Source: Malacoraja senta
Taxonomy: Eukaryota
Reading direction: 5' to 3'
DNA length: 64,000 nucleotides
Assembly: GCA_038087875.1 (NCBI GenBank)
Contig: CM075989.1
Span: 22,322,001 to 22,386,000 of the forward strand
Below the pieces are notes generated by a model. It did not search any database. It was not told the DNA's origin and worked only from the letters and a program-made list of their open reading frames with translations. This document shows, one piece after another, positions 4,001-35,189 of this stretch; the first letter of the stretch is position 1; each line of letters starts with the position of its first letter. The position numbers and the translations under genes are program-made.

Positions 4001-4335
4001 ATTGCAGACAAAAGGTCACGTAAATTTAATGATAATACAGAATGGATGTTGCATCATGAAATATTTAAGCAAATTGTAGCACAATTTGGAATGCCAGAGA
4101 TTGATTTGTTTGCATCAAGACTTAACCACCAATTGTCTAAGTATGTGTCATGGGAACCTCGGGGATTTTGGTGGTGCCAGATTGGCCTACACAGCTATGG
4201 TACCCACTGGTGTTAAACATGATCAAAATACTCCTTATGGTTATTCCAAAGCAGGTAAAACTGCTTGTAAACCCTGTAACTGAGGAACCACATCCTTTAC
4301 ATGATCGTATTGGTTTGTTGATTTGCAGATTCTGA
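1004..4335 (+). pseudogene. DIRS gag + pol (RT, RNaseH, Dam-methylase-like), one frame from ATG 1004, broken at ~4158
   Basis: RT motifs ASIDLQDAYY, LPNGLTSAPRLFTK, AYLDDIL (YLDD 3173-3184); RNaseH TDVSALGWG, INYLELL, VDNTTAVAYIN; MT-like IDLFASRLNHQL; continues in another frame as GILVVPDWPTQLW to 4335. Confidence 0.88.
1316..1740 (+). repeat. Degenerate ~54-bp (18-aa) coding tandem repeat in DIRS gag
   Basis: Units start at 1316, 1370, 1421, 1475, 1529, 1583, 1637, ~1691 (motif xWPTGEP..MP...QY). Confidence 0.75.
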
Positions 4336-9730: not shown

Positions 9731-10732
9731 ATCAAGAATGCGCTCCTCAAAGCCTTTAGGTTGTTGTAAATAACAGACGGAAATGTTGGGGAACATGCCT
9801 AGGATCTGGTGCAATAAGTTTATACGGAACGAGGCTCAGTATCAAGGGCACACATCACAAAATTGGCTCCACACTGTCTAAGCACATTTTCTATCTTCTC
9901 TTCCATCACCACCATTCACCTTCTCGAGCACTTCACCTCCTTGTTTATTGCTTGCACTTGAACACTGCGCACGTTTTAACCTGCAAACTTTCAAAGTTCA
10001 CTGTTGCCGAATGGTCATTGACATTAGACTTGTCCTCCAAGAGATCTATGTTAAAGGTTTCAAAGTTCACTTGCTGCAGTCCATTAAGACTGCAGGAAAA
10101 AGAAATCAATAAAGTACATAATTACAGGGACACTCTTCGCTCTGAATAGTTCATATACACAGCAATGTGCAGAAAAGGTCTCCCTTTCTCCAGCACTCGC
10201 TTACTTTCATCAAGTGGGTATTTCTCACTTACTGAACACAGGCATTACTTATTTTGGAGATATTTAGAGCCTTTGTTAAGATATGATTTTTGAACCAGGG
10301 TCAAGTGATACAGATATATAATAGTTCTCCTTGCACTCATGTATTCTTTCTTCATTAATGTTTCTATACATTTCTCTTCTGTTTACATATTTGTAAGGAC
10401 TGGTTTTATTTTTTAATTTTGTTAATTCCACCATTAATATCTACATTTTTCCGCAGTTTTTTTTCAGCTGTAGCAAGTGGTATGAAACCATCAAATTGTG
10501 TCTCGTCTTTATTCCAAAGCCTCACTTTTCTGAGCCAGCCATGAACAAATACTCCCAAAATGAGTGTTATTATCATTTGGAGTGGGGATGGGTGGGGATG
10601 AGGTGGAATTCTGATGGGCACTTAGGTCAAGACAGCCTATGGCCACTTTCAAGTTTGTATAACTTCATGGACATAAGAAATTAATTGGTGCTGATACCAA
10701 AGTCAACAAGAATTTGTATCAAAATGTACAGC

Positions 10733-11113
10733 GGGGGGGCGCCAGCAATGGCTGCCTCGCCAACAGTCAGTCTGTCCTTTCCTTCTTTGTGTTTGATTTT
10801 ATGTGTTAAATGTATGTTTTTAGTGTTCTTCAGTTTGTTTTATGGGGGGGGGGGGGGTGTGGGTTGGGGGGAAACTTTTTCTAATCTCTTACCTCGACAG
10901 AGATGCGATTTTTTTCCCGACCGTGGGAGAATATAGAGGAAGAAGACTTTTTTACCTTCCATCACAGTGAGGAACGTGGGGAATCCGCTGTGGTGGATGT
11001 TTATGTTAACTTTTATGTAGTTGTGTGTCTTGTTAGTTTTTTTTCCGTATGGCGTAGGGTAATTCGCATATCACTGTACCTTAATTGGTACATGTGACAG
11101 TAAAAGACCTTTG
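10733..11113 (+). mobile_element. Non-coding repeat ending in a Rex/Babar-like tail
   Basis: GC-rich start GGGGGGGCGCCAGCAATGG; end TCACTGTACCTTAATTGGTACATGTGACAGTAAA resembles 9685-9716. Confidence 0.55.
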
Positions 11114-11149
11114 AAGCCATTGAACACAATTTTTAAAAATATAGTTTAA

Positions 11150-11335
11150 TTGAATATTAGTTTAGTCGGGTACAATGGAAAGTTTTTATGTGTTAACCAG
11201 TCAGCGGAGAGACAATACATGATTACAATCGAGCCATCCACAGTGTTACCGATACATGATAAAGGGAATACAGTTTAATGCAAGGCAAAGCCTGATGAAA
11301 GATAGTCCTAGGGTCTCCAAAGAGGTAGATGGTCA
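11150..11335 (-). mobile_element. Rex/Babar-like 3' UTR fragment
   Basis: Reverse complement resembles 9250-9390. Confidence 0.6.
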
Positions 11336-11364
11336 ACCAGCCTCTGCAGTTCATCCCTGCACAT

Positions 11365-11760
11365 GTAATTATATGGTAGCTTTCATGACTTCAAGATGTT
11401 CCAAATTACTTTAAAACCAATAAAATACTTTTGAATGACTATCACAGTGCAGGAATCCAGACCAAACAAATTCCACATGGTGAGGTTTTACAAACAGTAA
11501 TATGGTGATGATCTGCAAAAATGTTCTGGGGAAAGTGGTTAATGGGTAACAATTGGCTATGACTACAGGAAGAGTCTTCCTTCCTCCCTCTCCCCTACTT
11601 TTCTGTACATCTTCTGCATCCTCTTTGGAGGCCACTTTGGTCTCATCCATGAGGAAGCTTCATCTCCATTTGGTAGAACTATCACACTCTATGGTACATA
11701 AGCATGGTGGTGCGTTGTACTCTGCCTTTGAGTTATGGTCCAGAGAAGTGAATAGAATGG
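11365..11760 (-). mobile_element. Highly degenerate DeuSINE (SacSINE1-like)
   Basis: CCAATAAAATACTTTTGAATG, ACAAACAGTAATATGGTGATGA and GTCTCATCC segments in the order expected for a reverse-complemented Deu domain. Confidence 0.5.
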
Positions 11761-12529
11761 ATTTTGGAGATGACAAGACAAGTTGTTGATGCTATGACGT
11801 GATATATAAAGAACCAGGAAAGTCCTACCAATGAGCACCCCTCATTGCATTGCTTATTGACTCTGAAGATATTTATTTCCTTTGTATTCCGAGCTCGCTC
11901 TTGGCTCCAACAATGCTTTTCGTGGTAACTTTAAACGCAATAATAATGTTTTCCACAAATTCAATACAAAGTGCTGGAGTAACTAAGCAGGTTGGGCAGC
12001 ATCTCTGGAGGACAAGGATAAGTAACATTTCGGATTGGGATCCTTTTCCAGTTGACCGAACTGGAAACTGCTCTAGTAGACCCGACTTTGGAAATGGGGC
12101 CAAAACATGGCGGCACCTGCATGTGTAAATATGCAAACATTATTTCACTGTGTAGTTGCCCGTGTGACAGATAAAGCTCCATTGAAACCTTTGATTCGTC
12201 AGACTGGAGAAGATCCTGACCTGAAACATCATTTGTCCACGTCTTCCAGAGGTGCTGTCTGGCACGCTGAGTTACTCCAGCATTTTGTATTTCTTTTGGA
12301 AACCAGCATTTGCAGTGTCATGTGTCTACAATAACGTTTTCACTTTAGATACAATTGACAATCCAGGTAAAAGTTGTGCCCAAAATTGCACATAGTTTGA
12401 GTAGTGTTTGCTCATCTTTTTGACACTTGTTGCTCAAATGTATTTGCATCCCGTCGAATACCAAACCTGCCGTAAATGGAAGTAATCGACCATTATTTCA
12501 CAGACTTCTTTTTTTTAAAGTCACGGTGG

Positions 12530-12970
12530 TGGCACGGTGGCGCAGCGGTAGAGTTGCTGCCAAAAAAAGGGCCTGTCCCGTTTAGGCGACAGCCAGGGAC
12601 TACTTTTAATAGAATTCACCTACGACACCTGGCGACAACCTACGACAGCAAAAATTGTCGCCAATTTTCAACATGTAGTCGCACAAAAAAAATCGCCTAT
12701 GTGGGACAGGCCCTTTACAGCGCCAGAGACCCAGGTTCAATCCTAACTAAGGATGCCGTCTGTACAGAGTTTGTACATTTTCTCCGTGACAGCGTGGGTT
12801 TTCCCCGGGTGCTTCGGTTTCCTCCCACCCTCCAAAGGCGTACAGGTTTGGCTTCTGTAAATTGTAGATAGTTCCTCGTATGTAGGATAGTGCTAGTGTA
12901 TGGGGTGATCGCTGGTCAGCGCGGACCGAAGGGCCTGCTACTTACTATGCTGTATCTTTGAAGTCTAAAT
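12530..12970 (+). mobile_element. HE1-type V-SINE interrupted by a MITE
   Basis: GGCACGGTGGCGCAGCGGTAGAGTTGCTGCC resumes as TTACAGCGCCAGAGACCC after the insert. Confidence 0.88.
12568..12714. mobile_element. PIF/Harbinger-like MITE
   Basis: Imperfect TIRs AGGGCCTGTCCC..TAGGCGA / TCGCCTA..GGGACAGGCCCT; inserted at the TTA of the SINE. Confidence 0.75.
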
Positions 12971-14429
12971 GTTACGATATGTTTAAGAATGACAACTTGG
13001 TGCATTCTGATTATTGCAGCTGAAAATGGGTTCTCCACACCAAGTGGAAGGATTTTTAATTTTTAATTACAGCTTCAATCCACCACCTGTGAGTAACCTG
13101 CAAATGAGTGTAATTAGCAGAAGCTCCCAATGGTGATTAATTCAACCAGGAGTGTGGGCAATGTTATGGGCAAGGCTGGCTTCAGGCAGAATGGTGTTTA
13201 AACTCTATCCTACAGAGATGGATCGAGATGGATGCAATTTAATTTCCGTGGAGGCAAAAACAGTGCAAAGAATTAATACTAATTGTGGATCAAAATGAGA
13301 ATATATACCCCTTAAGACAGGCTCAGAATCGTGTTATTTCTACGAGACAGCGTTTTAGACCGAAAAGATTTTGATGAAAGCCCACGTTGAGATGTTACGT
13401 AAAGCAACAGATGTTTTGAATAAAGGTTAATTGTCAGGAAGAATACATTTGACTGATACCGATAGTGAATACTAACGCTGCAAATCAAATTGTGATCTGT
13501 TACATTATATTTCTAAATGCAACATGCTCCAGCCAAAAGTATTTTCAGAGCATTAATAATAAAGATGTTTTTTTTCTAAGGGTGAACAATGACATTGTTT
13601 CATTGTGGCTAAACACACAGTAACTTGACTCGGGATTTTGTTCAGCGGGTATTGAAAGCAGATGTAGGTGAAAGGTTGTCTGAAATTACAACACCATATT
13701 GGCACACGTGATTCTACGGCAGGATCCCAAGCGACCATTGGATTCCATGCAGAAAGCGCGGGGGGGGGGGGGGGGGGGAACTAACCATCATGTTTACTGT
13801 GTGAAGATATTCCAAGCAGAACCAGCTCCAAAATAAGAAATTGATCCATCTGAAGAAGGCGCCCAACCCAAAAAAGTCATCTGTCCATTCCCACCACAGA
13901 GGCTGCCTGACCCGCTGTTCCTCCAGCACTTTGTGTGTTATGCTCAAGATTTGCGCAACAATTGCAGTTCCTTGTGTCCCCATAAGAAATTGTTCATTGA
14001 CTTTACCATTTGGTATGATTCCCAGGCTGGCAAATGGAAGGTCATTTCTATGTGATTCCAGCCAGAGAATTATGAGTTCATCAAGCAAGAGGTCTCGCAT
14101 GACCTCTTCATATTGGCTTTAGTCTCTTTCAGTCTCGATTGTGGCATAGAAACATAGAAACATAGAAAATAGGTGCAGGAGGAGGCCAATCGGCCCTTCG
14201 AGCCAGCGCCGCCATTCTTTGTGATCATTGCATCAATTTAAGACGTTGACTGTCCATTTCCCTTCACGGATGCTGCCTAACCTTCTAGTTCATCCAGCTG
14301 CTAAGTTTTTTTTTGTTCCAGATTCCAGCATCTACAGTCTCTTGTGCCTCCATAATATGGAAGGGAATGAAATGTTACACCTAACGCGACCAATCCAGTC
14401 AGCACACGAACTTCATGATATACATACAT

Positions 14430-14635
14430 AATCCATTCATTTATTACATTCATTTGTTCTATATCTCTCTACATCACCATCTGTATCCCTCTCCCCTGAC
14501 TCTCAGTCTGAAGAAGGGTCTCAACCCAAAACGTCACCTATTCCTTCTCTCCAGAGATGCTGTTTGACCCGCTGAGTTACTCCAGCTTTTTGTGTCCATC
14601 TAAACTAACACCAGCATTTGCAGTTCCTTCCTATA
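14430..14635 (+). mobile_element. Penelope-like element 3'/pLTR fragment
   Basis: CTCAGTCTGAAGAAGGGTCTCAACCCAAAACGTCACC..CCAGCATTTGCAGTTCCTTCC, homologous to the UTR linked to GIY-YIG coding sequence at 60635-61092. Confidence 0.75.
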
Positions 14636-15060
14636 AACTTCATAATACCCGGTCTCATCAGGCTGGCAACACCTTTACTCGCACTTACAACTCAATAGCT
14701 GTAGCAATAGCCTGTCACTGTACCTCGGTATCTGTGACGATAAACTAAACTAAGTTACCAACATCAACTAATTCACACTATTCAATTCAGCACCAATTAT
14801 TCTCAGTGGATTACTTTTCTGCAAGAAGGAAAATAATGGAAATAACTACTTTTAATTCAACATAAACATGGGAGATATTTGATTTTAATTAGTAATATTT
14901 ATCCTTCTGCGGACACTGCAGATGCTGGAATAATGAGTAAAACACAAGTGCTAGACTAACTCAATGGGTCGGACAGCATCTGCGGAGGGAATGGGTGGAC
15001 TTAAGAAGGGTCCAGACCTGAAACGTTGTCCATCCATTCCTTCCTCTGATCTCACCCGAG

Positions 15061-15373
15061 TTTTAGTTGAGTTTAGATTAGAGATGCAGCGCGGAAACAG
15101 CTTCGGCCCTCCGGGTCCGCATTGACCAGTGATCCCCGCAATTTAACGCTATCCTACACACACTAGGGACAATTTACATTTATACCAGGCCAATTAACCT
15201 ACATTCCTGTACGTCTTTGGAGTGTGGGAGGAAACCGAACATCTCGGAGAAACCCCAAGCAGGTCACAGAGAGAACGTACAAACTCTGTACAGACAGCAC
15301 TTGTCGTCGGGATCGAACACGCGTCTCTGGCGCGGTGAGGCAGCAACTCCACAGCTGCTCCACCGTGCTGCCC
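15061..15373 (-). mobile_element. HE1-type V-SINE
   Basis: Reverse-complement match to the copy at 6260. Confidence 0.88.
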
Positions 15374-15717
15374 AACGTGTTGGAGTTAGTCCATCATTTT
15401 GCGTTAAACCTGTTCTGTGCTTGAAACCACTGACACTTGGAGCGGAGGTGAATGGTGGATGCAACAGGTTTGGAAGTGCAATCTGTGATTCATTCTGACC
15501 TGGGAGACTTTCAGGAAAGGCACAACACACGGGACTCTCTTCTGGCTGGTCCCAAAAGGAAGCTGATAGTTATGCATAATGAAATATAATTAGTATTCTT
15601 TACCAGCCTGTAAAATGTTATATGAAGTGATAAGCATGGTGTCCAACATTAGATTTACATACGGCAGTTCCTGAAGCCAATCTCCTTCAGTAATGAGCAA
15701 CTATGTTGACATACTGT

Positions 15718-15925
15718 GGAAACAAGGAACTGCAAATGCTGCTTTGTACCAAAGATGGGTGCAAAGTGTTGGCGTAACTCAATGGGTCAGACAGCATCTC
15801 TGGAGGTAAAGGATGGGTGGCATTTCGTGTCCTTGAAGGGTCCCGACCGGAAACGTCGCCCATCCTATTTCTCCAGAGATGCTGCCCAACCCGCTGAGTT
15901 CCTCCAGCACTTTGTGTCTATGTTT
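15718..15925. mobile_element. Penelope-derived inverted-repeat fragment
   Basis: CAGCATCTCTGGAG..CTCCAGAGATGCTG inverted arms. Confidence 0.7.
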
Positions 15926-16451
15926 GTATACTTGCAGGTTCACCAAAATGCCACACCCAATGGCCGATTCTTTCTCTTCCATTCCCCCACCAGCATCAGC
16001 CACCCATATTTAACCTGTTCACTGCCAAGTTTTTGTTTTCCACTATTGACCATGACACGAGTATACTCGGTGGTGGCACTGAACAGGTTAATGAATTGTA
16101 GTTGAAGTTCAGCCATGTCATGCAAGCTCATTAGATGTCTTGCCAGGGGTAGTAGAGGATATTTGAGGATTAAGGATATATTGACTGATTTGAGAGGTTA
16201 GACATGGAAAAAAACAATTATTTTGGTGAGGCAGTTGAATAATGGGAAGTAATCTTAGACAGACCCAAACTGATTTGGAGTCAAAATGGATTTTTTTTTT
16301 ACACTTGGCTAAATCTGGAATTCTCACCCCAAAACACGTTGGCTCCTCGTTTATCTGAAATTTTGGAAGTTGAGATTAATAGATTTCTTTCAGGTAGGAA
16401 TATCAAGGGATATGGAACAAACAATGGTCAACGAAGTTGAAGAACATATTA

Positions 16452-16738
16452 AAGCCCTGTCCCACTGTACGAGTTCATTCAAGAGCTCTCCCGAGTTAAA
16501 AAAAAAATCAAACTCGTGGTAAGCACGTAGAATGTAGCGGGTACGTCGGAGCTCGGGGACGTCGCTTAGCGGCTCGTAACGCTAACGGCAGGTATGCGTG
16601 AAGATTTTTCAACATGTTGAAAAATGTCCACGAGAGCCCCGAGTATCTACGAGCGGCCATTACCGTAAATCTCCGAGTTGTGAATCAGGGGAAACTCGGG
16701 AGAACTTTTGAATGAACTCGTACAGTGGGACAGGGCTT
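16452..16738. mobile_element. PIF/Harbinger-like MITE with ~46-bp TIRs and TTA TSD
   Basis: AAGCCCTGTCCCACTGTACGAGTTCATTCAAGAGCTCTCCCGAG / CTCGGGAGAACTTTTGAATGAACTCGTACAGTGGGACAGGGCTT; TTA at 16449-16451 and 16739-16741. Confidence 0.88.
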
Positions 16739-18840
16739 TTAGGCTTGGTTCATTTGAGTGGCGGATTAAACAAGGTGCTGGATAACCTGCTCTTGCCCCT
16801 CTGTACGTGAGAAGGTACGATGGCAACATTTTTGATTTTCTTCATCACAATTGCTAACTGTTTGAAGATGTGCCCAAGTGTTGGTTGAAGTGCTTGCCAA
16901 GCAATTGTTTTGTTCAACCACCTGTTACCGGTTAATTATTCTGAGGAGATACTCATAAATCATAACACTGGACAATTAATCAAGTTGTCAGGATTGGGGT
17001 CAGAGGTTGTGAGGGAAAAGTCACAGGTCACCTTCAAGCTGATAAAGGTCAGGGTTGTGTTGCATCCCTCATTGTCAAGTAATGCCACGAGTAGATCGAC
17101 GGGAACAAAAGGGAAATCACTGTCCAAAACCAAGTATACAAAAACCCTCCCCCCAATTTACAAATGGGAAGCAGAATAAACTATTATTTATATTAAAATA
17201 TTAGTGAGTAATTCAATTGGTGAGTACCATCTTGCTACCAGATTGTAACGAAAATTATGGAAGCACACTTCGTATAGAAATACAATTAAAAACCCATAAT
17301 TTTCATGCATCATAAATATTCTTCACGCTTGTTGTTAACTTAATTAATGTAATTAGAGAATCTAAATTGATCAAAAACAGTCTTTGTGTGGAGCAGCGTT
17401 GCTTTGCCTCATTGCTTCCTAATCAAGAAGTGAAATGTCACTTTTACAGATGATTTAAATATGAAATCAGGAAGGTCTTCTGTTACAGAGCAGGGAGAAC
17501 AGCGTTGTATCAGAGTTTAATTGTTTTCCTATTGCAGGGTGCATGCACATCATTCATGTACTCGCGGTGCCTCCATGCATGCCCAGGTCTTTATAGGTTA
17601 TGTGCAGGGCTGCAGTAGTGTGGCGTTTTAGGGGTGGAATGATGAAGAGATCACTAAGTTTGACCCCATACTTACAGAGAGAAGTTAGTATCAGCCTTCA
17701 ATTGCGAGCTGTCAAAAACGTCGCTTCCCTCAAACATCTTGGTGATGCCACGTTTTTGATATTTGTGCTAATTACTGCGATGACAATCATTGCTTTCATC
17801 TCTGAACATTAAGGTGTAATTTTCTCACCACTGAAAGCATAGACCTAGTGGTGGCAGTCTCACAAATCCCATCTCCGGTCGTGATTCCTTCAATCATCAG
17901 CGGGATATAGAAAGCACAGTCTCTATTATCCTTGGAGACTGTGCAACATGTATTTCCAATGATCTCCAGTCTCTTTAATTTAATGTTATGGATGAAACCT
18001 TTCGAATACCACAGTTATTGTTCAATGATATATGTTGAGGCAGTATGGTTTTGTTTAGATTACAAATTGACAATTACTAACAAGTATTTTACTCTGCATA
18101 CACTTCAATTGAAATGAAAATTGGAAGTCCAGATTTATCTTGTTAATTTGTACTGTTTACAAGACATCTAAATATCAACCTGGAAATGTTTCAAATAACA
18201 AAATAATAAGCTACCCGTCCATCCATTCTTAAACTATTAAAAGTGCCGGCTTTAAAGACGCTGATTTGAAAGTCAGTGCATTTGACCTTGTTGGATAATT
18301 GCTTTTTGTTAACTGATTGCTAGTGAGCAACACTTATGCACGAAGATTAAGAAAGTTTAAGAAAGATATAATCAGATGCCTTTTCCATCTAATTGTCTGA
18401 AATGGTGCGCTCTATTTTAAAACACTGTCTTATTGTGTTATTCAAAATACAAACTCCACAGAGGAATTACTCCAGGAAAGAAGACATGAGATAAAAATGT
18501 TGTGTGTGTTACAGGGACATCATTGTGTGAGTGATGGTGTTCAAGGTCATTATACCGTTCACCACTAAAAGCTACTTTAAAAATGTTCTTCAACTGATGT
18601 TGTATCATTCTCCGTGCCCAGTGTCTGAGGTCTTCACAGATTGGGTTTTTCTAATTAGGTGTCAGAATTAATATTTCTTTGATTTATGTGTGGTTGGAAC
18701 TATACGGAGTCTGCCAACACAGAATTCGCATTGGTTGCTAACAAGTTGAGTTAGCTCAAAATTTCAGCCGGGCTACAATCTTAGACCACAGTTGTTACAC
18801 TGTTGTTGCAGATCAGAACCTGATGTTTATTCTGTGATGT

Positions 18841-19146
18841 AGCTTAGCTTAGAGATACAGAGTGGAAACAGGCCCTTCGGCCCACCACGTCTGCGCCGAC
18901 CAGCGATCACCGCACACTGACACTGTCCTACGCACACTAGGGACAATTTACAATTACACCAATCCAATTAGCCTACCAACCTGTACGTCTTTGGAGTGTG
19001 GGAGGAAACCGGAGATCCCGGAGAAAACCCACGCAGGTCACGGGGAGAACGTACAAACTCCGTACAGTCTAGCACCCGTAGTCGGGATTGAACTCTAATC
19101 TCTGTTGCAGTTAGCAACCAACTCTACCACTGCGCCACCATGCCGT
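18841..19146 (-). mobile_element. HE1-type V-SINE
   Basis: Reverse-complement match to other HE1 copies. Confidence 0.88.
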
Positions 19147-19169
19147 AGTGTTGGCATGCTTTTAACACG

Positions 19170-19910
19170 GAACATAGAACAGTACAGTACAGCAACAGGC
19201 CGCGTGACCCACAATAGCCCAGGACTAAACACGGGGCCGCGTTAAATTAATCTTTACTGCCTATGATCCATTCCCTCCACATCAATGTGTCTATCAAATA
19301 CTACTTGTTTTAGAACATAGAACAATGCAGCACCGGAACGGGCCCTTCGATAGAACATTTGTGCCAAACATGATGCCAGGTTAGGCACAATAGCTGGAGT
19401 AACTCGGCGGGTCAGGCAGCATCTCTGGAGAAAAGAAATGGGTGACGTTTCATGTTGGAACCCTTCTTTGGGCCAGAAATTTCACTTATTATTTTTCTCC
19501 AGAGATCTGCCTGAGATACTCCAGCCTTTTGTGTCTATCTTCAGGTTAAACCAGCATCTGCAGTTCCTTCTGATGCCAAGTTATGCTGGTCTCATCTGCC
19601 TGTACATGATCCATATCCCTCTGTGCCCTGCACTCCTATGGGCCTATCTAAAAGCCTCAAAAATGCCACTATCAAATCTGGCTCAACTGCCAACCCTAGC
19701 AATGTGTTCCAAGCCCCCACTACACTCTGTGTAAAAAATAAATCTTGCTCTTCATGCAACTTTCCCTCTCTCACCTTTTATCTATGCCCTCTAGTGTTGG
19801 GCGTTTCCACCCTGGGTGAAAGGTTCTGACAGTCTACCCTATCCTTGTCTCCCATAATTCTATATACTTCCACCAAGTCTCCATTCAACCTCTGACTTTC
19901 CAGAGAAAAA
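19170..19910 (-). mobile_element. CR1 3' fragments with nested Penelope-derived insert (19384-19570)
   Basis: FFTQSVVGAWNTL on minus; insert flanked by TGATGCCA(G/A)GTTA at 19371-19383 and 19571-19583. Confidence 0.75.
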
Positions 19911-20054
19911 GATGACCCCAAACTGAGTTGAGTTTGGATTAACGGGGAAGTGATATTGAAGGGATACGTTCTAATGTTAGGAGAAGCAAGCAGCGTGGCT
20001 CAAAAAACCTTTGCGCGCGTTAACAGATCACAGCCACACAAGGGGAGGAATATG

Positions 20055-20371
20055 TCTGCTACACCAGTACATCAATGACCCCATGGACGTCCCTGGCCAG
20101 GACCTGCCCCGAAAGCAGTGGACAACCCTCAACCGCTTGAGGACAGGCGTCGGACGCTATGGCGTAGCGATGAAGAGGTGGGGCCTCGTGGACAGCGAGT
20201 GCCTCCTGCGAGTGTGGGGACCCAACACAGACAGTGGAGCACAAAGTCACCAGTTGCCCCAAACACCGGCCACCAAATGGTGAACGAGGTCTGATTGTCC
20301 TGGACGATGACACGTTGGCCTGGCTCACCCCAATGGAGCTGCAGGTCTAAAAGACATACGACAGAAGAAGA
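20055..20371 (+). mobile_element. Vingi/Ingi-like LINE, 3' end
   Basis: PGQDLPRKQWTTLNRLRTGVGR..KRWG, then (frameshift) CECG..QTVEH...CP zinc knuckle and ..AWL; ends CATACGACAGAAGAAGA. Clade assignment is from recall. Confidence 0.7.
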
Positions 20372-20497
20372 TGAGTGAATACAAGGTGGAGTTGAGCAGG
20401 AGAGAAGTTGATCTGTCATTCGGGTGACTTCCAATGATGAGAACTACACAAGAGCCTCAATGTTTTCCAGCTGCATTCATGACAATGTGCAATTTTA

Positions 20498-20790
20498 GGG
20501 GTGGCACAGTGGTGGAGATGCTGCCTTACATCCCCAGAGACCCAGGTTCGATCCTGACAACGGGTGCTGTCTATACTAAGTTTGTACTTTCTCTCTGAGA
20601 GGTTTTCTCTTGGTGCTCTGGTCTCCTCCTACACTCCAAAGACATGTATGTTTGCAGAATAATTGGCTTTGGTAATATTGTAAATAGTTCCGAGTGTGTA
20701 AGATGGTGCTGGAATGTACAGGATGGTCGCTGGTCAATGCAGACTCGGTGGGCCGAAGGGCCTGTTTCCACTCTCTATGCCTAAAATCTA
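20498..20790 (+). mobile_element. HE1-type V-SINE
   Basis: B box GGTTCGATCC, V domain, CR1-like tail. Confidence 0.85.
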
Positions 20791-21050
20791 AAATTTCTTG
20801 ACGGTGTAATGTTGCATTTTTAAACAGAATTTTTGGATGAGCCAAAGTTTTTTTTTAATAAAGAATAGCGTTTGTTTTCCAAAGTTGATGTCAGTTTCTG
20901 TAATACGCCAAAAAATGTTTATGCCATTTTTTTCTATTTTGAATTTTGGTGTAATTATTTCCAGAGATTGTAGAGGAGAAATTCAACTTCGGCAGCAACA
21001 AGATAGATTGTCCACCTATTGTACATCACAGCCAGTTTCTCTCACATTGG

Positions 21051-21770
21051 AGATAGACAGAAAATGCTGGAGGAACTCCTGCTGAGTTACTCCAGTATTT
21101 AGTGTCTATCTTCGCTGTAAACCAGCATCTGCAGTTCCTTCCTAGACATCTCTCACATTGGCGATGGACAACCAATCTTTTGTCATCTATTTTCTTCCCT
21201 CTTCATTCTTGTCCTCTCAACAAAAAAAAAAAGATTTGTCCCAGCAGAATGGGAAGGAAGTCTGAAGAATGGTCCCACCCTGATACGTTGCTTATCCATT
21301 CCCTCCATAGGTGCTGAAACAAGGAACTGCAGATGCTAGTTTACCAAGGAAAGTCATAAAATGCTGGAGTATCTCAGTTGATCTGGCAGCATCCCTGGAT
21401 AAATTGGATAGGTGACGTTATGGTTCGGGACCAGAAGGCTCCCAACCTGGAATGTCACCTATCCATGTTCTCTAGGGATAGGTACAAAGTGCTGGAGTAA
21501 CTCAGCGGGTCAGGCAGCATCTCTGGAGGCATAGTGATGTTTTGGGTTGGGTCTGAAGAAAGGACCCAACCCGAAACATCACCGTTCCGTTGCTTCCAGA
21601 GATGCTGCCTGACCTGCTGAGTTTCTCCAGAACTTTGTGTGTATCTTCAATATAAACCAGCATCTGCAGTTCATTTCTAGACATGCTCTCTAGTATGTTG
21701 CCTGACCCAATGAGTTGCTTCAGCATTTTACTCAAGATTCCAACATCTGCAGTTACCTATGTCTCTATTC
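21051..21770. mobile_element. Cluster of nested Penelope-derived inverted fragments
   Basis: Repeated GCTGGAGTAACTCAG / CTGAGTTACTCCAGC and CAGCATCTGCAGTTC; first insert flanked by TCTCTCACATTGG (21038-21050, 21149-21161). Confidence 0.75.
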
Positions 21771-21852
21771 ATCCATTATCCATAATATTAAGGGTGAATA
21801 ACTTGCTTGGCCTCATTTGTTAGTTTAGTTAGTTTAATTCTTTGCCACATGT

Positions 21853-22190
21853 TTAGTTTAGTTTAGTTGAGAGATACAGTGCGGAAACAGGCCCTTCAGC
21901 CCACCATGTCCACACTGACCAGCGATCCCCGCACATTAACACTATGCTACACACGCAAGGGATAATTTACATTTCTATCAAGACACTTTGGAGTGTGGAA
22001 CGAAACCGAAGATCACGGAGAAACAGCGAGAAGCTTTATGCTGCGTACTATCTGTAATTAAAATCGAGCCGTGTACAGATGCAAGATAAAGGGAATAACG
22101 TTTAGTCAATATAAAATATGATTAAAGATACTCGAGGTTCTCCAATGAGGTGGATATTTCCATGACCGCTCCATAGTTGTTGTGGCTATT
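21853..22190 (-). mobile_element. Partial HE1 SINE within a Rex/Babar 3' UTR fragment
   Basis: SINE tail GAGATACAGTGCGGAAACAGGCCC, followed by sequence resembling 11190-11335. Confidence 0.65.
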
Positions 22191-22360
22191 TCCATTTTGC
22201 CACCATCCTAACATAATGGGAGCAAGACAAAGTCATGTCCAGCTAGAATTGTGAAGCAATGTAATGGTAACCTTCAAAATCCATTTGCGTTGTGACCTTT
22301 GTAAGCCCTTTACATTGGATGATGTCATGAAACAATATCAAATGATTGCAGAATAGGATG

Positions 22361-22660
22361 TCACGGTGGCGCAGCGGGAGAGTTGCTGCCTCACAGCGCC
22401 AGAGACACGGGTTCAATCCTGACTACGGGTGCTGTCTGTACGGAGTTTGTACCTTCTCCACGTGATCGCGTTGGTTATCTCCAGGTGCTACGGTTTCCTC
22501 CCACACTCCAAAGACGTGCAGGTTTGTAGGTTAATTGGCTTGGTATAAGTGTAAATTGTCCCTAGAGCGTGTAGGGTAGCGTTAATGGGTTGGTCGGTGC
22601 AGACTCGGTGGGTCGAAGGGTCTGTTTCAGCGCTGTATCTCTAAACTAAACTAAACTAAA
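22361..22660 (+). mobile_element. HE1-type V-SINE
   Basis: A/B boxes, V domain, (CTAAA)4 tail. Confidence 0.9.
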
Positions 22661-23104
22661 CCTCAATGCGATTTAAGAGTAGCAGCATCTTTTACAGGCA
22701 TTCTCGGGAAGTGCCGTCAGTATACGTGACATATCAGCACTACATTTTAACTGTAATAATAAGCTTCCAGAACAAGTAATTTAAGCAATATATGTCAGTG
22801 TTACTGATTTTATGAGGCTATAAACAATTCTTGCGAGTTAAATAATGGTAGAAGCTGCACATGCAGTCACTTCCCAGCAACGGGGCTGTTTCTGCTGAGT
22901 AAACGTGACATATTTTAATTGTTGTTGTGGTAAAAGTTCAAACTGTAGATTAAAAGCAGCAGAAATTACCGCAGAAAAATTGAGATCACTGCAACAATGA
23001 GCAGAGGTTCCCAGCATCACTTAATAGAAAACATGCTCATAGTTCAGAAACCAACACAGCATCTGGACAATTCCAGTCGAGGAGTTAAGACCAAGAATAT
23101 TAAT

Positions 23105-23420
23105 TTTTAGTTTTAGAGACACAGCGCAGAAACAGGCCCTTCGGCCCACCGAGTCCACACCGACCAGCGATCCCCGCACACTAACACTATCCTACACACA
23201 CCAGGGACAATTTACACATACACCAAGCCAATTAACCTACAGACCTGCACGTCTTTGGAGTGTGGGAGGAAACCGACCATCTCTGAGAAAACCCACGAGG
23301 TTACGGGGAGAACGTACAAACTCCGTTCGGACAGCACCCGTAGTCGGGATCGAACCCGGGTCTCTGGCGCTGTAAGCGCTGTAAGGCAGCAACTCTACCG
23401 CTGTGCCACCGTGGCTGCCC
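23105..23420 (-). mobile_element. HE1-type V-SINE
   Basis: Full reverse-complement copy. Confidence 0.9.
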
Positions 23421-23444
23421 ATTAATCCGTCTTTGTTTACCTGT

Positions 23445-23890
23445 AGACATTGGACAAACTTGCAATGTTTTCCCTGGAGCACAGAGGCTGCGGGCAGACC
23501 TGATAGAAGTATGTAAAATTATTTCATACCGCCTTTTGGGAAGCAGCCAACATAATCAAGGGCTGCACATACCTCAGTCATTCTCCCTTCTTCTCTATTC
23601 CAATCTACCACCAAGAAGGACATAGGTTTAAGGTGAGAGGGGAAAGATTTAATAGAATCTGAGGGGGAACTTCTTCACACAATGTGTGGCTGGGGTATGG
23701 AGTGAGTTGCCAGAGGAGGTAGTTGAGCCTATTTGAGAACCAATTAGACAGGTACATGGATAGGACAGGTTTGGAGGGATATGGGCCAAATGCAGGCATG
23801 GGAATAATGTAGAAGGGACATGTTGGTCGGTGTGGGCAAGATGGGCCAAAGGGCCTGTTTCCATGCTGTATGACTCTGTGGATCTATGAT
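23445..23890 (+). mobile_element. CR1 3' fragment with short Rex-like insert (~23525-23605)
   Basis: AGAGGCTG..GACCTGATAGAAGT; CATAGGTTTAAGGTGAGAGG; tail GGGCCAAAGGGCCTGTTTCCATGCTGTATGACTCT. Confidence 0.75.
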
Positions 23891-24423
23891 GGGATCAGGC
23901 TAATAGGATAGCTCTTTCTTTTTATATGGCACAGATATAATGGCTTCCGTCTGTGATCACCCATGTTGTACAATTCTATGGTTTTCATCTTTTCCTGTCT
24001 GGCATATTCACATCAGATATTCTTCGGAACATCGCTGTGTTGCATTTCTATTGTTCTCTTGTGGAACTACTGCGGGAAAATCATGTAGAGAATGATATTT
24101 TTGCCATGTTAATGTAAGCGGTCCTTTCATCATGAGTAACATTCCAGGTTCTCACCAGGGAACATGAATAATTTTTGTTCAATCAAGAATATTTTTTCTT
24201 CCCATTAAAACAGATAAATTAAATCTTAAGCATCTCTAGATGAAAGAGAGAATGAATAACATTAATCTACTCCTCTGTTAATAAAATGCCTCTATTCCTG
24301 ATCACAAGTTAATTGACTTGTACACCGGTGAAATAGTTTGCTTTGAAATCCTTTTATTGGCTCTTGGTAAATTGAAAATCACTCCCTTATATTTATTCAC
24401 CATTACAATCTAAGCATTAAAAC

Positions 24424-24632
24424 AAAAGACACAAAGTGCTGGAGTAACTCTGCGGGTCAGACAGCATCTCTGGAGAACATTGATGAAAAACGTTTCTAGT
24501 TGGAACCTGAAAGAAGGGACCCAATCCAAAACGTCACCTAACCATGTTCTCCAGAGATGCTGCCTGACCCGCTGAGTTACTCCAGCACTCTGTGTCTTTT
24601 TCTGTAGACCAGCATCTGCAGTTCCTTGTGTT
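24424..24632. mobile_element. Penelope-derived inverted-repeat element
   Basis: AAAGACACAAAGTGCTGGAGTAACTC..GAGTTACTCCAGCACTCTGTGTCTTT inverted arms. Confidence 0.8.
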
Positions 24633-24935
24633 CATCGAAGTCCATCATTAAAATTGGTTTTTATACGATGGTTTATTTTTTAATTGATTTGAAAGATAAA
24701 GCTCGGAAACAGTCTTGTTGGCCCACCGAGCCACTGCTGGAATTCTAAATTGTAAATGATCAGCCCCAAATTGAAGGTGTTCCCAGAACTGAAGCATTGA
24801 CTGATAAACAAAATACAAACAGCTGGAGGAACGCAATAGACCAGGACGCAGCTGAGGATGGAAATGGATCGGCAACTCTTCGAGTTGGAACTCTTCCCCT
24901 TTTGGCCCATTGTACCTGTGCCAGTCATCTAGAGA

Positions 24936-25216
24936 GGTGGTGCAGCAGTAGAGTTGCTGCCTCACAGTGCCAGAGTACCGAGTTCGATCCTGACCACAGG
25001 TGCCGTCTGTATGGAGTTTGGACATTTTCCCTGTGACCATATGGGTTCTCTCCAGGTGCTCTGGTTTCCTCACACACTTAAAACACGTGCAGGTTTGTAG
25101 GTTAATTGGATTCAGTAAAATGGTGTGGGACAGTGCTAGCATACAGGGTGATCGCTGGTTGGCGTGGATTTGGTTGGCCGACGGGCCTGTTTCTGCCCTG
25201 TATCTCTGAAGTCTAA
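24936..25216 (+). mobile_element. HE1-type V-SINE (older)
   Basis: B box, V domain, tail. Confidence 0.8.
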
Positions 25217-25334
25217 AGGTGTCCCAATCCGAAACATTGTCTGTCGATTGCCCTCCACAAATGCTGCCTGACCAATGAATTCCAGCATTTTATTTTGTTC
25301 AAGACTCCAGCATCTACAGTTCCTTGCGTCTACT

Positions 25335-25630
25335 TTGAGTATAGAAGTTGGGGGGGTCATGTTGCAATTGTATACAACGATGGTGAGGCCAGATTTAGAG
25401 TATTGTGTTCAGTTCTGGGCACCGTGTTATAAGAAAGATGCTGTCAAGTTGGAAAGGGTACAGAGAAGATTAACGAAGATGTCTTTGGAGTGTGGGAGGA
25501 AACTGGAGCACAAAGAGAAAACCCATTTGCTCACAGGGAGAACGTAGAAACTCGTTACAGAATGTACCCCTAGTCGGGATCTCTGGCGCTGTAAGGCAGC
25601 AACTCTACCACTGCGTTACAGTGCTGCCCC
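25335..25630. mobile_element. CR1 RT fragment (+) joined to the 5' half of an HE1 SINE (-)
   Basis: LYTTMVRPDLEYCVQFWAP..LERVQRR to ~25480, then GTCTTTGGAGTGTGGGAGGAAAC. Confidence 0.75.
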
Positions 25631-26965
25631 AACTGCCTTGTGTCAACATTGATTGATAAGTTCCCTTGCTATTTCATTTACAAATTACAGAGGAAAAACG
25701 GCGAAAAAGTTTTGAGACTGGCTGTGGGTTACCTGATCTCTCTATATGTTGATATCTGAATCAAAGGGGAAGCCAGCACTTCTGACAAGTTCATGGTACC
25801 TCAGGGGTGTGGGTGCAAACTTCTGTGGATATTGATGAGCCCGAGACCTCTTTGAATCCATTCATATCCTGAACATAAATGGTTATGCTCCTTTGATTGT
25901 CGGCCAAAGATTTTTCCTGCAGGTGATTAAAATGATTTAAAACATGAAAAGCCTATGGCATTTGGGACAAGGATCAGGTCAGGTCTGGTCACAAAGAAGG
26001 CTCTCAAGGATTCATCTGCCATTTGACAATTTCATCAATTGCAATCACAAGAAGTTTGCTTTGTTTGGCTTTGCTGCCTGTGATTGCCGTCTTACATTAG
26101 TCTTCTCTCTGAGTTTGATTTTTCCTTTAAAGTCCCATGGTCGAGAGCCCTTCCTTTCAATTAGGATTATTCCTTGCCTGACAAGTTGATAGCTGCCAAG
26201 AGAGAAGGTTGATAGTGTTGCTAGGTTTAATGAACATTTTGTCCTTTTTAAGTCTTGCATATATGCAATAGGTTGGCCAATGTTCTTGTCAACGGCGAAG
26301 GTGAAAAGTTGCCTCATTTAATTTTACCTATCCCCTTTTTAATGAGCTTTATTGGAATTTTGTCAACATCTTTTGGTCATCCTATTATGATGTGAGAAAC
26401 AGTTGCCAGAAATTGACAACATCAATTCCACCGGGCAACTGTGTTGAACCATTTATTTCCAAGCGTTACATTACTGCCAACAATTCTCTCACCCAAAATC
26501 TTGTTTCCTCCGAAATTAAATCACTTGCCCATCCACAATTGACGCTGACAGTGTCTTCAACTACTGCAAACTCTAATGAGGCTTATTTTGAGAGAACGGG
26601 CATAATTGGTTCATAGCTGAGAGAGAATATGAATTCCTCTTAGAAACCTTGTTCAAAGAACGGTGCACAGGTTGTTCAGAGAATACCACATGAGCAAAGG
26701 CAAATAGTAGCAACGTTTTCTTATTAGCAAATTTAATTTACTAATAAGTAATAAGCATTTTCCAATTAACTTTTGTGACACTAAATTTGGGTACAAGCCA
26801 ATGAACTATGGTAGTTAAAATCTGTATTCTTCAGTTTAAAGACCAAAGTCACTCAACTAAAACTTAGCAACAAAGGAGTACTGAATTCCTTGGGCCTGTA
26901 GTTCTCATGAGCTAGGACCCCCCCCCCCCCCCCTCCCCAGCTATCCTCCCCAGCACAATTACAAG

Positions 26966-27215
26966 TCACCCAGAGAGTTGTGAATTTGTGGAATTCTCTG
27001 CCACAGAAGGCAGTGGAGGCCGATTCACTGGATGCATTCAAAAGAGAGTTAGATGTAGCTCTTAGGGCTAACGGAATCAGGGGATATGAGGAGAAGGCAG
27101 GAACGGGGTACTGATTGGGGATGATCAGCCATGATCACATTGAATGGCGGTGCTGGCTCGAAGGGCCAAATGGCCCACTCCTGCACCTATTGTCTATGTA
27201 TCTATGTATGTATCT
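26966..27215 (+). mobile_element. CR1/HER1 3' end
   Basis: CAGAGAGTTGTGAATTTGTGGAATTCTCTGCC..CTCCTGCACCTATTGTCTATG. Confidence 0.88.
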
Positions 27216-27227
27216 AAGTCCCAATTT

Positions 27228-27681
27228 GAAATGTCACCTCTCCATGTTCTCCAGAGATTCTGTCTGACCCGCTTAGTTACTACAGCATACTGTGAAACGT
27301 CACCTATCCATGTTCTCCACAGATGCTGCCTGACCCGCTGAGTTACTCCAGCACTCTATGAAAGGCCACCTATCCATGTTCTCCACAGATGCTGCCTGAC
27401 CCGCTGAGTTACTCCAGCACTCTGTGAAAGGTCACCTATCCATGTTCTCCAGAGATGCTGCCTGACCCGTTGAGTTACTCCAGCACTCTGTGAAACGTCA
27501 CCTATCCATGTTCTCCACAATGCTGCCTGATCCGCTGAGTTTCTCCAGCACTCTGTGAAAGGTCACCTATCCATGTTCTCCACAATGCTGCCTGACCCGC
27601 TGAGTTACTCCAGCACTCTGTGAAACGTCACCTATCCATGTTCTCCACAATGCTGCCTGACCCGCTGAGTTACTCCAGCAC
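27228..27681 (+). repeat. Tandem array of 7 x 65-66 bp units derived from the Penelope pLTR
   Basis: Units GAAA(C/G)GTCACCTATCCATGTTCTCC..CTCCAGCACTCTGT start at 27228, 27294, 27360, 27426, 27492, 27557, 27622. Confidence 0.95.
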
Positions 27682-28569
27682 ATTATGTCCTTTTTTTACA
27701 CAAACTTTGGTACCAATTCTGTTCACTGCAAACACAATTGTGCAATCAATTGCAGTGGTTTCCAAAGTTAGCAGTTCTTCTCCCCAACTATAATAAGTAT
27801 CGCTAAACAATAATCATCCCTCGCAGTTTTCAATAACGTTGATTTGCAAGTTTGCTGGGAAACTAAGTGAAAAATAACAAGGTGTAACTTTTGAGCTGAA
27901 TGAAAATGATTAAGTTTGAACAATTATCTTCAAAAATTATTTTGGAACATAAACCAACTGCGACATAATGATAAATAGTTTGATATATATTTTAACAGTT
28001 GTTTTCAATCATTTAAAATTGAATTGCTTACAAATATTGGAATAGCTCCACGATTTAACTTTGTGTGACTTCATTTTCAACAGTTGTAATCAAACTGCAC
28101 AGCATTACAACTGTGTGAAATGTCATGGAATATGTGTTTTAAGCAACAATTCTGAAAATAAAATGTTTTAAAGTGCTGTCTGAGTATATTGTTTGCAGCA
28201 AATGAGTTTGCACGAAATATCAAGGGAAATTAAACACTTCAAAATGGGTGAAGGTTTGGGCACCAATTCACCATTTTTACCCATGAGTACACTTCTTGCC
28301 TTTTCAAAGTCCGTAATTCTAATTTGGAAGAAATTAAATTTCTAAACTCTGGTCATTACGTCACTGAAGTTTATCCTCTTGCAAAAAAAAAATAATGTTG
28401 GTTTTACGGTAATACCCATTATAAAGACTAGCATCTTCTGGGATTTTAAGATTTTTAAGAACTTATCCAAATTTGAATTGGCTCAGTACTCTCATAATTA
28501 TCACGTTGAAATATCTTTCTGAAGCTTGGAATTTCCATCAGCAACTCAAATTCAAGTTCCCTTGAAGGC

Positions 28570-29105
28570 TGAGAAAGAGTTATAGTGTCGTACTGCTGTG
28601 AAACAGGCCCTGCGACACAACTCGTCACTGCTAACCAAGATGCCCCATCTAACCTATTCAGATTGGCCTTCATTTGACTATATTCCTCTAAACTTGTTCT
28701 AGCCATGTTCCTGTCCTAATGTCTTTGTAACATTGTTAATGTGGCTGCCTCAACTACTTCCCTTGGAAGCTTGTTCCATGCACCCACCACCCTCTGTGTG
28801 AAATGGTTGCCCCTTAGTTTAGTGTAATATAGAGATGCAGCACTGAAACAGGCCCTTCGACCCACTGAGTCCACGCTGACCACCAATCAACTGTTCATAC
28901 TAGTTATTCCATGTTATTCCATGTTCTCATCCACTCCCTGCACATTAGGAGGCACTTACAGAGCACAATTAACCTACAAACCCTCATGTCATTGGGAATG
29001 TGGGAGTAAACCGGAGCACCAGGAAGAAACCCATGCGGTCACAGGGAGAACGTGCAAACTCGGGGTCCTATTAAATCTTTTCCCCTCTCGCCTTAAAACT
29101 ACGCC
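28570..29105 (-). mobile_element. CR1 3' fragment with nested HE1 SINE (~28815-29060)
   Basis: The CR1 sequence ..GTTGCCCCT resumes as GGTCCTATTAAATCTTTTCCCCTCTC after the SINE. Confidence 0.75.
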
Positions 29106-29838
29106 CTCCAGATAGATGCCTTCAAAAATCAGTAAACTGAAAGTTACGACATGAACTAAGAACATTGTGCCGTTATGTACTTAGCCATGTTAAGCTTGGT
29201 CTTCACACCAGCTACTCCACCACCACCTTCACTGGTGGGACTATTGCTTAAAAATAGACAGGAGCTTCAGTTACAACTGAAGACAAACCTACTGTATATA
29301 GATGCACACATGCCTTCAAATGGTTGCAAGCTACAATTGGAATAAATTATAGACAATAGTATTTATAACCAACAAAATTATTGTCATGTTGTTGTATAAT
29401 CTTTATATTACACTGTAAATAAGTTTTAATGCCTCTCTGTGTGGTGCTAACAGTTTGTTACATATCCTGTAATTTTCATTGAGCACATCACTTTACTTTG
29501 CGTTTTAAAAGTATCGCATGAAATTATCGCGAACCATTTTATTTAAGAGATGTACAACAACTGCTAAATAGCCATTTCTGTTGTGGGTAGTCTTGAACTG
29601 AATGTTTCAAATGTGACACCAGAGGAAATTACGCTGTCGGCACCAGCATTTATAATTTCTCTGGCACAATAAAAGAAATGATGCATGTTTACAGAATGAG
29701 GATGAAAGTAAAGGGGAGAATAGGACACAGTGCGGTTGTAACCAACCTATCGAGCAAGCTGTAGTCGCAAGCTGTTGTGATCATGTATTGTCATTCCATT
29801 GGCTTGTGAGCACGTGACGGAAGCTATGGAATCTAATG

Positions 29839-30390
29839 GAATACTTTATTGTCACATGTGAGAAGACACAGTGAGATTCTTTGCTGGTACACAAAAATGC
29901 TGGAGAAACTCAGCGGGTGCAGCAGCATCTATGGAGCGAAGGAAATAGGTAACGTTTCGGGCCGAAACCCTTCTTCAGACATTATCTTCTTCAGATTCTT
30001 TGCTGCATCTCCAATGTATACAAATAGCGTCTACCTAAGGCGTTGACAAGGTCACAAAGCACGCCGGCTCCTCCTTTTGTTCTCCTCCCCCCCTCCCCAC
30101 CACGCCGGGTTCCCACCACGCCGGGTCCCCATTGTCCATTGTTCTCCCTTCCCCCCCCTCGCGATGATCCCCCCATACTCTCATCGACTGTCGACGGCGG
30201 ATCGACCCGCAAGGCTTCACCGCTGCCGAGGCCCGACCGCTGTTGACGTCCCACTGACCGTGGTCCGTCCTCGTCCGTCGGTCAGCGCCATTATCGGCCG
30301 CCGCACCGACCTCTCCACAACGCTGCCGGGTCCTCTCCTGAGGCCTCCGTGGTGCCGCGCTCTGACCCACGAGGCCCCGGCCAGGCACCC
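29839..30390 (-). mobile_element. GC-rich non-autonomous repeat with Rex-like tail, containing a Penelope-derived insert (29887-29992)
   Basis: Reverse-complement tail CACATGTGACAATAAAGTATTC; insert flanked by the perfect 13-bp AGATTCTTTGCTG (29874-29886, 29993-30005). Confidence 0.65.
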
Positions 30391-34280: not shown

Positions 34281-35016
34281 TACGTGGGACCACCGATTTG
34301 TCAGCTGAGGCAAGGCGACTGGGTAAGAGGGAGGTGGGAGTGCAACAGCGAAAAGCTTTATTCCTTCTGATAAAAGCATACTAATGCTCCAATGTTAACT
34401 TATCAAATGTATGTAAATATTGAACTCCAATTTAATCTGGTAAAATCAAACATCAACAATTTTTAAAGGTTAGAAGAACCTTCTTAGTATATGGCTTGTC
34501 TACTTTGATTGAGGAGGCTTTAATGAAGACAATTATTCCATTCTCACCTTCAAGATTGGACAGATATGTTAGATAAGAAGGGTTGCTAATTTTCTATCCA
34601 TATTAACTAAGGGGAATTAAGCATCCCCTCATTTTGGATTCTGCATGAATTAAGCCAAAATTTTGAATTAACACATCAAGGGAATTATGTGTTAATTTTT
34701 TTATCTGATTAAATATAAGCCAGAGGCACTAATTAAACAATGAAACACATCCACTTGCATCCTGGTTTAGAGTGAATCGAGGTAACATACTGATATTACT
34801 GACCATGTACGAACACTGTTCCAACCTAACTCATTATTGAAGAGGAATGATTAATTAATTGAGAATATGGGACTCAAGTTATTAAGGAGTGAGGGAATTT
34901 CAGGCTAAAGAAATGCGAGTCCAAAAATGGAGAACCATAACATTGCATTTTAGAGTGGAGGGGAATTAAGGTGCTTACCTCCGCCCACAGAATTAGTGAA
35001 AATTATTAGGAAGAGG

Positions 35017-35070
35017 GGGGTGGGAGATTGCAACCTTCACGCGGTCCGCCCTGTTTCAACGAATGCAATC
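35017..35070 (+). ncRNA. Predicted minimal HDV-like self-cleaving ribozyme
   Basis: P1 GGGGTGG/CCGCCCT with G1-U wobble, P2 GATTGCA/TGCAATC, P3 ACC/GGT, L3 TTCACGC, J4/2 C-GAA. Confidence 0.75.
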
Positions 35071-35159
35071 AACCTGGCGTGCACAATCAAATAAGATCAA
35101 ATAGAACAAGTTGTCCTACAACTTTAGGCTGTGCACGCCATACGCAAGAAGAAGTAGAC
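35017..35159 (+). mobile_element. Short non-autonomous Vingi-type retroelement (ribozyme-headed)
   Basis: TSD TAGGAAGAGG at 35007-35016 and 35160-35169; tail CCATACGCAAGAAGAAG resembles 20355-20370; no tRNA A/B boxes. Confidence 0.78.
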
Positions 35160-35189
35160 TAGGAAGAGGGAGGAATGTAATGAAAGTGA

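Follow-up and report, generated by a model that had tools for sequence, protein, structure and literature searches.

As far as the available text of the cited papers describes them, several short retroposons and ribozymes resemble the element reported here. The R2 SIDE and R2/R1 SIDE elements of Drosophila combine a 5′ HDV-like ribozyme with the 3′ end of their parent LINE, and R2 SIDE, which is protein-free and moved in trans, arose by internal deletion (PMC3414825). In trypanosomes, RIME and NARTc are short elements with both ends of an Ingi-related LINE (ingi and L1Tc, respectively) and HDV-like first bases; their ribozyme is the assayed 77-nt Pr77, which has a P4 helix (PMC4035085). The Vingi-1_EE derivatives and SINE2-1_ACar/Vingi-2_ACar represent internal deletions of Vingi LINEs that retain both ends (PMC5786205, PMC4494074), and Bov-A, RTESINE and WALLSI3, from the RTE clade, join the 5′ and 3′ ends of a LINE without a pol III head (PMC5786205). 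Minimal HDV-like and theta ribozymes are P4-less double pseudoknots with a C as the first base of J4/2; they come from metagenomes or phages, often follow a tRNA, and the origin and function of the minimal HDV-like ones are called open (10.1101/2023.06.13.544163).

We analysed a stretch of DNA of 64,000 nucleotides (hereafter, the window) that harbours one copy of a comparable element, which starts with a predicted HDV-like ribozyme, ends with the 3′ end of its parent LINE and has no pol III head. Like R2 SIDE it is protein-free and arose by internal deletion, and it probably moved in trans. In contrast to R2, which is RLE-type and rDNA-specific and has only rare SIDEs, it originates from an APE-type LINE, is widely inserted and is present in thousands of copies. 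Its predicted 54-nt head retains a P4 remnant of 6 nt, unlike Pr77, and it lacks the tRNA head of SINE2-1_ACar. Its parent is a Vingi family and not an RTE element, and the predicted minimal heads are here those of a LINE and of the short element derived from it, within a large eukaryotic genome. With this element a minimal HDV-like ribozyme would have an identified host and context, and copies in the thousands. The original prediction had compared the element with RIME/NARTc, and this analogy is borne out by its Vingi-type tail and its nature as a short both-end derivative of a LINE. It has the 5′ part as well as the 3′ part of a bipartite non-autonomous LINE, both from the parent that we call family D. 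That the element represents a new family of a known class, with an identified parent, is well supported. No name for it was found in the literature; Repbase and Dfam, which lie outside this comparison, may hold one.

A multicopy element with target-site duplications

The window copy and its flanks are organised as follows:
35007..35016, + strand: left target-site duplication (TSD), 10 bp, direct repeat
35017..35154, + strand: family unit, 138 nt, with a GAA-repeat 3′ end
35155..35159, + strand: five additional bases between tail and TSD, peculiar to the window copy
35160..35169, + strand: right TSD, 10 bp, direct repeat

A 143-bp element between direct repeats had been predicted. The direct repeats are present and the element is a real repeat, but the family unit measures 138 nt; the figure of 143 includes the copy-specific bases 35155-35159.

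The element is a protein-free multicopy unit. In the 1.94-Gb genome, whose repeats appear similar to those of cartilaginous fishes, a DNA search returned 1,959 candidates, of which the 40 that were scored reached 98-100%. An internal 19-mer gave 6,074 exact matches, while the reversed control gave none, so that the repetitive nature proposed in the original prediction was confirmed: there are at least 6,000 copies. In 775 kb of flanking sequence we found 12 chance matches to the element, one of which was a LINE end and just three of which contained the exact 19-mer. This suggests a copy number of roughly 10,000-30,000, estimated from flanks that are not random.

We sampled 60 consecutive copies, selected by the exact 19-mer, within the initial 15.5 Mb of a single contig (contig 1). 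In 58 of these the 5′ end lies at most 4 nt from G1, the first base of the element, and 57 are full length. Of 54 sampled full copies, 42 are flanked by an exact TSD that is 7-13 bp long, with a median of 11, compared to 3% in mismatched-flank controls, which extends the duplications seen in the window to the family. According to the available text of PMC13708176, Vingi-1 is used in RNA-only gene insertion, the templates carry the two UTRs, and insertions suffer from truncation. Since the 138-nt element is a template found in nature and is inserted at full length this often, it indicates RNA features worth testing.

Among 121 copies, 62 have a T as the base 5′ of the element, and the TSDs often open with purines that prolong the GAA tail. 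Both could possibly reflect a target preference or microhomology priming. The element stretch was also found in sequencing runs from six organisms, where X20-X23, with too few words, were left out of the count, and in contigs of four runs, three of them only guessed to be RNA, which shows its presence only. In contigs of X15 and X19, from two studies, the first 68 nt (35017-35084) are doubled head-to-tail ahead of a full element. One copy (L117:3508-3645) lies within a LINE of family B. Two apparent subfamilies were rejected. A 12-nt core deletion (18 of 80 copies) was an artefact of a deleted-copy query and occurred once in the 60 unselected copies, and a seemingly young group marked by an A at nt 42, seen in 6 of the 60 unselected copies, was probably query-picked CpG decay.

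The head fits a minimal HDV-like fold

The first 54 nt of the element fit the nested double pseudoknot of HDV-like ribozymes, with P4 almost absent. A structural descriptor of HDV-like ribozymes predicts these parts:
35017..35070, + strand: predicted minimal HDV-like ribozyme, 54 nt
35017-23/35046-52, + strand: P1, 7 bp, opening with a G.U pair
35024-25, + strand: J1/2
35026-32/35064-70, + strand: P2, 7 bp
35033-35/35043-45, + strand: P3, 3 bp
35036-42, + strand: L3, 7 nt
35053, + strand: G of P1.1, a single C-G pair
35054-59, + strand: P4 remnant, 6 nt
35060-63, + strand: J4/2; its first base, 35060, is the candidate catalytic C

The element head was the sole match to the descriptor on both strands of the window. 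Each of three block-shuffled windows gave no match, and exchange of the catalytic C in the descriptor for A, G or T gave 0, 1 and 0 matches, respectively. The ribozyme-like head that had been predicted for this multicopy, protein-free retroposon thus fits a structural model. The C opening J4/2 is conserved in 56 of 60 copies, while every pair and the C together are intact in just 25 of 54 sampled genomic copies. The element had no match among the Rfam models, either at the gathering threshold or at E values up to 10; since these models are sequence-bound, this null result weighs little against an HDV-like fold.

HDV-like ribozymes cut before G1 of P1, and G1 is the first base of the element; the predicted cut site therefore lies directly 5′ of 35017. 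Cleavage directly upstream of the ribozyme domain is described in the available text of PMC4035085.

A tRNA search of the element found none, and no A box was found with one mismatch allowed. At nt 79 a single 9-mer resembles a B box, from which it differs by one mismatch. The head does not derive from tRNA, 5S or 7SL RNA, and the element is thus no pol III SINE in the strict sense.

Pattern searches for variant heads returned only rearranged copies: all 11 matches to a long-P4 head, and the 30 that were inspected among 38 matches to the element head on another body. The head pattern passed over family D, in which its fixed J4/2 letter is absent; D is alike beyond the tested sites. Two unlinked copies (L178 and L181) have a similar insert at the P4 position, with a hairpin in one of them and flanked by a short duplication; this insert may be a regrown or an ancestral P4 variant. 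In L192, L194 and L208 the head is inverted between both P2 strands, and L263 and L268 are 5′ inversions of D. The head inversions suggest template switching at the pseudoknot.

Both ends of the element descend from Vingi family D

Family D was revealed with a pattern of the terminal 16 nt of the element behind other sequence, which gave 57 matches, 30 of them inspected (L225); further leads came from the flank of L164, by chance, and from the loose end of a contig. We then compared the element with the best 39 other loci of 201 candidates. Its parts derive as follows:
35017..35097, + strand: part from the 5′ end of D (nt 1-81), 86-91% to L260, L262, L258 and L277
35098..35110, + strand: junction, 13 nt, on inspection in part a local duplicate of the bases just before it
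35111..35154, + strand: part from the 3′ end of D, the last 44 nt (nt 95-138), as in shared D 3′ ends
35125-35127, + strand: D stop codon, assigned by frame, between the last codons and the 3′ UTR with GAA-repeat tail

The last 39 nt of the element end 33 of the 39 D loci, several at 100%, and its head occurs in the four loci listed above over 69-82 nt. The two ends match with E values of 1e-24 and 1e-8. In L260, L262 and L258 the head is contiguous with the endonuclease-RT frame, in which the ribozyme itself is open, and TSDs enclose both ends of L260 and L277. Because both D ends match, the element can be written as nt 1-81 of D, followed by the 13-nt junction and then by the last 44 nt of D; since both ends descend from D, it is a short internally deleted element. 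The junction 13-mer was not found in the 39 D loci with up to 2 mismatches, nor was an intact D frame seen in them. L277, L171 and L216 represent other, independent internal deletions, and D therefore yields such products repeatedly. Nucleotides 55-87 had seemed to be the final codons from a frame like that of B; this reading was dropped, as these bases derive from the 5′ end of D.

We take D to be a Vingi family on the basis of its architecture and the naming in the original prediction; the protein database search returned no named Vingi or Ingi reference. D can be aligned to families A and B along their endonuclease, middle and RT portions. The nearest protein in the database is P0063, at 67% across 1,025 aligned residues; it contains the Pfam domains Exo_endo_phos and RVT_1 only. 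D has a single frame with an APE endonuclease and RT and no RNase H, which is how Vingi is defined in the available text of PMC13708176.

The LINE in the window is not the parent

The window contains another Vingi LINE:
20058..20374, + strand: Vingi family A, 317-bp 5′-truncated copy, not the parent, 93% to the 3′ end of the full-length copies L092 and L084

The original prediction had taken this LINE for the partner of the element, with a common 3′ end and possibly a common 5′ ribozyme. The end of the element indeed matches the LINE end (20355-20370) at 14 of 16 bases, which by itself is at chance level (E = 4.1). Three of 20 family A loci reach the 5′ end. Full-length A also opens with an HDV-like fold, but with a different sequence, and the BLAST match to the element is limited to the last 16 nt. 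This terminal motif is common to families B and C and to many unrelated Vingi-like ends, and all families end in a similar motif followed by GAA repeats. Descent from and dependence on family A, for which the terminal match and the HDV-like opening of A would speak, is refuted as to descent and very improbable as a whole: A shares no further sequence with the element, while D shares both ends.

Families B and C were obtained from protein searches and family E from a flank. None of the candidates besides D qualified as parent. A lacks the 5′ end and the 3′ UTR of the element, B has just 21 of 26 nt of the ribozyme core and the terminal motif in common with it, C shares the terminal motif, and the one fragment of E has no shared sequence. 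E (L243/L027) represents a fifth Vingi-like family, about 42% to A, with a best database protein at 45%. In L237, an internal deletion of family C, the 5′ part is fused to the 3′ end, and C may have short derivatives of its own. The C copies L151-L167 lie within a large block that recurs, with 90-99% identity, across dozens of small contigs, with some tandem partials, and looks like a satellite or a segmental duplication around a LINE.

HDV-like folds are predicted at the 5′ ends of eight Vingi families

Families A, B, C and D all open with the same HDV-like fold, although their sequences differ, and so do four Vingi relatives from 80 metagenome loci. In the alignment of these eight families pairing is kept in 135 of 136 helix cells, a single column having as many as four types of pair, and the C opening J4/2 is present in 8 of 8. 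Because the descriptor demands pairing, the weight of this alignment lies in the 5′-end position and the zero background. A relaxed descriptor matched 8 of 26 metagenome loci, one of them doubtfully; most of these loci are truncated or decayed. The P4 span is 7 nt in D and 19-42 nt in the other Vingi families.

We found no report in the literature of 5′ HDV-like heads in Vingi, including the minimal head of D. Vingi members may stand under Ingi in Ruminski 2011. In the available text of PMC5786205, the six clades with 5′ ribozymes are R1, R2, R4 and RTE together with Ingi and LOA, and Vingi is absent from these.

In L260 and L262 of family D and in L101 and L111 of family B, the ribozyme reads stop-free and in frame into the endonuclease, and in D an ATG overlaps J4/2-P2. 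By analogy, this fits a start of translation that is linked to the ribozyme, which has been proposed for R2 and L1Tc.

The element and family D are of similar age

Two pairs of duplicated copies were reduced to one member each. Of the 58 copies that remained, 9 fell into a D-like group, 9 into a side branch, and 17 and 18 into two derived groups; 5 were unplaced. Non-CpG divergence was 3.1% in the D-like group, 3.8% in the side branch, and 3.0% and 2.0% in the derived groups. The D-like group has the letters of D at the diagnostic sites. The window copy belongs to the youngest group, S4 (2.0%, 30 of 1,475 sites). The median for D was 3.0% (1.3-4.6; 39 loci) and that for A 1.4% (0.6-2.2; 20 loci), both from best-scoring matches that lean young. 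D and the element are thus of similar age and, as judged from these divergences, spread together.

Because the 2.0% of the subfamily of the window copy falls between D and A, its last driver is not fixed. The element could have been born from D while its youngest wave, including the window copy, was moved by family A or by another Vingi that reads the terminal motif. The intermediate divergence and the similar terminal motif and GAA repeats of all families are in line with such a change of driver. However, S4 keeps the 3′ end of D unaltered and gained no A-like letters, and its divergence lies inside the range of D, of which copies down to 1.3% exist. We therefore regard a change of driver as unlikely.

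Pairing between the two ends

Three features of the element body concern its pairing:
35075..35085, + strand: 5′ arm of an 11-bp stem, from the 5′ end of D, pairing perfectly with 35130-35140
35130..35140, + strand: 3′ arm of the 11-bp stem, from the 3′ UTR of D, pairing perfectly with 35075-35085
35108..35124, + strand: 7-bp hairpin across the junction, 6 pairs in the D-like subfamily

Both the perfect stem and the hairpin are present as originally predicted. The stem is, however, no self-contained 3′ tail module, as one arm comes from the 5′ end of D and the other from its 3′ end. The fold of the element body beats 200 of 200 shuffles (z -4.5). Eight contiguous pairs of the stem already exist in D and in the D-like subfamily. 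In the derived groups two changes, one of them a CpG-type transition, turn both D mismatches into pairs.

For seven families we scored, in fixed windows, how the 35 nt that follow the ribozyme pair with the terminal 35 nt of the same family. Own-family duplexes had z values of -2.9 (B), -4.5 (C), -3.8 (D), -4.1 (G), -1.4 (A), -1.4 (F) and +0.8 (I), and own-family pairing was clearly the best in four of the seven (B, C, D and G). Of 5,040 label permutations, only 5 were not surpassed by the own-family diagonal; the families are related and the trials not independent. The idea of end pairing arose after the data for A-D; G, F and I were fetched later and proved strong, weak and absent, respectively. 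Both ends were usable in 3 of 80 metagenome-derived families; F and I are single copies, the anchor of I is uncertain, and one of six 3′ rows of G was dropped as empty. For D, 60-73 of 1,000 shuffles paired as well in an earlier run with one-sided shuffles and 1 of 1,000 in a later one, between which the 5′ segment and the shuffling scheme were changed.

A search of the literature on Vingi UTRs, circularisation of non-LTR elements and bipartite RTE elements, with subscription papers and patents mostly outside its reach, gave no report of such end pairing. SINE and LINE end sequences in the supplements of PMC5786205 may bear on it.

A proposed mechanism and its alternatives

The reading that we consider very probable is that the element is an internal deletion of D, made of its first 81 and last 44 bases, that was likely freed by its ribozyme and likely copied in trans by D. 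Transcription would occur by read-through or from an internal pol II promoter. Cleavage 5′ of the G at 35017 would then create a uniform, protected 5′ end, the 11-bp stem would close the RNA end to end while the terminal motif and GAA tail stay free, and the endonuclease and RT of D would insert it by target-primed reverse transcription, with a duplication of about 11 bp. Release from a longer transcript by self-cleavage is highly likely. Because the ends are shared and the ages are similar, we infer movement in trans by the D protein; mobilisation by target-primed reverse transcription in this way is likely for the family and less so for its last wave.

Alternatively, the head could be a structural relic or serve only as an internal promoter, with the 5′ end set by transcription start at +1. 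The available text of PMC4035085 offers precedents, as the L1Tc head is promoter and ribozyme at once and some well-folded SIDER heads showed no cleavage in vitro. The reduction of P4 to 6 nt would also suit a relic, as would the low proportion of copies with all pairs and the C intact, which is expected of decaying copies. This is nevertheless quite improbable, since eight families with differing sequences keep every helix and the C opening J4/2, even if the pairing is partly required by the descriptor, and since P4-less HDV-like ribozymes are active (10.1101/2023.06.13.544163, available text).

We give an even chance to the stem being incidental, due to a palindromic hexamer at both ends, with the ends kept only for the ribozyme at one and the RT binding site at the other. 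The stem core is indeed palindromic, families A and F pair weakly and I does not, one of the two pair-gaining changes is of CpG type, subfamily S2 (9 of 58 copies) gained neither, and the idea followed inspection of A-D. On the other hand, B, C, D and G pair strongly with differing sequences, few label permutations equal own-family pairing, and G comes from a separate collection fetched after the idea arose. Functional end pairing of the element RNA has about an even chance or slightly less. A wider version is more tentative, namely that Vingi RNAs close by pairing of the post-ribozyme bases with the 3′ UTR beside the priming tail, that the RT recognises this two-ended structure and that the element is its minimal substrate. 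If true, the element would combine the smallest retroelement-borne HDV-like ribozyme with an end-to-end stem grown from 8 to 11 pairs, and this would explain why both-end derivatives arise from Vingi and its kin, unlike most LINEs.

Other repeats in the window

At positions 803-5317 (+ strand) an open frame of 1,137 aa includes an RT domain, and tyrosine-recombinase domains come after it in two additional frames. We take this to be a DIRS-like retrotransposon, presumably young from its appearance. Densely spaced SINEs of the tRNA type, together with another family of short repeats (repeat families D1-D20), account for much of the window.
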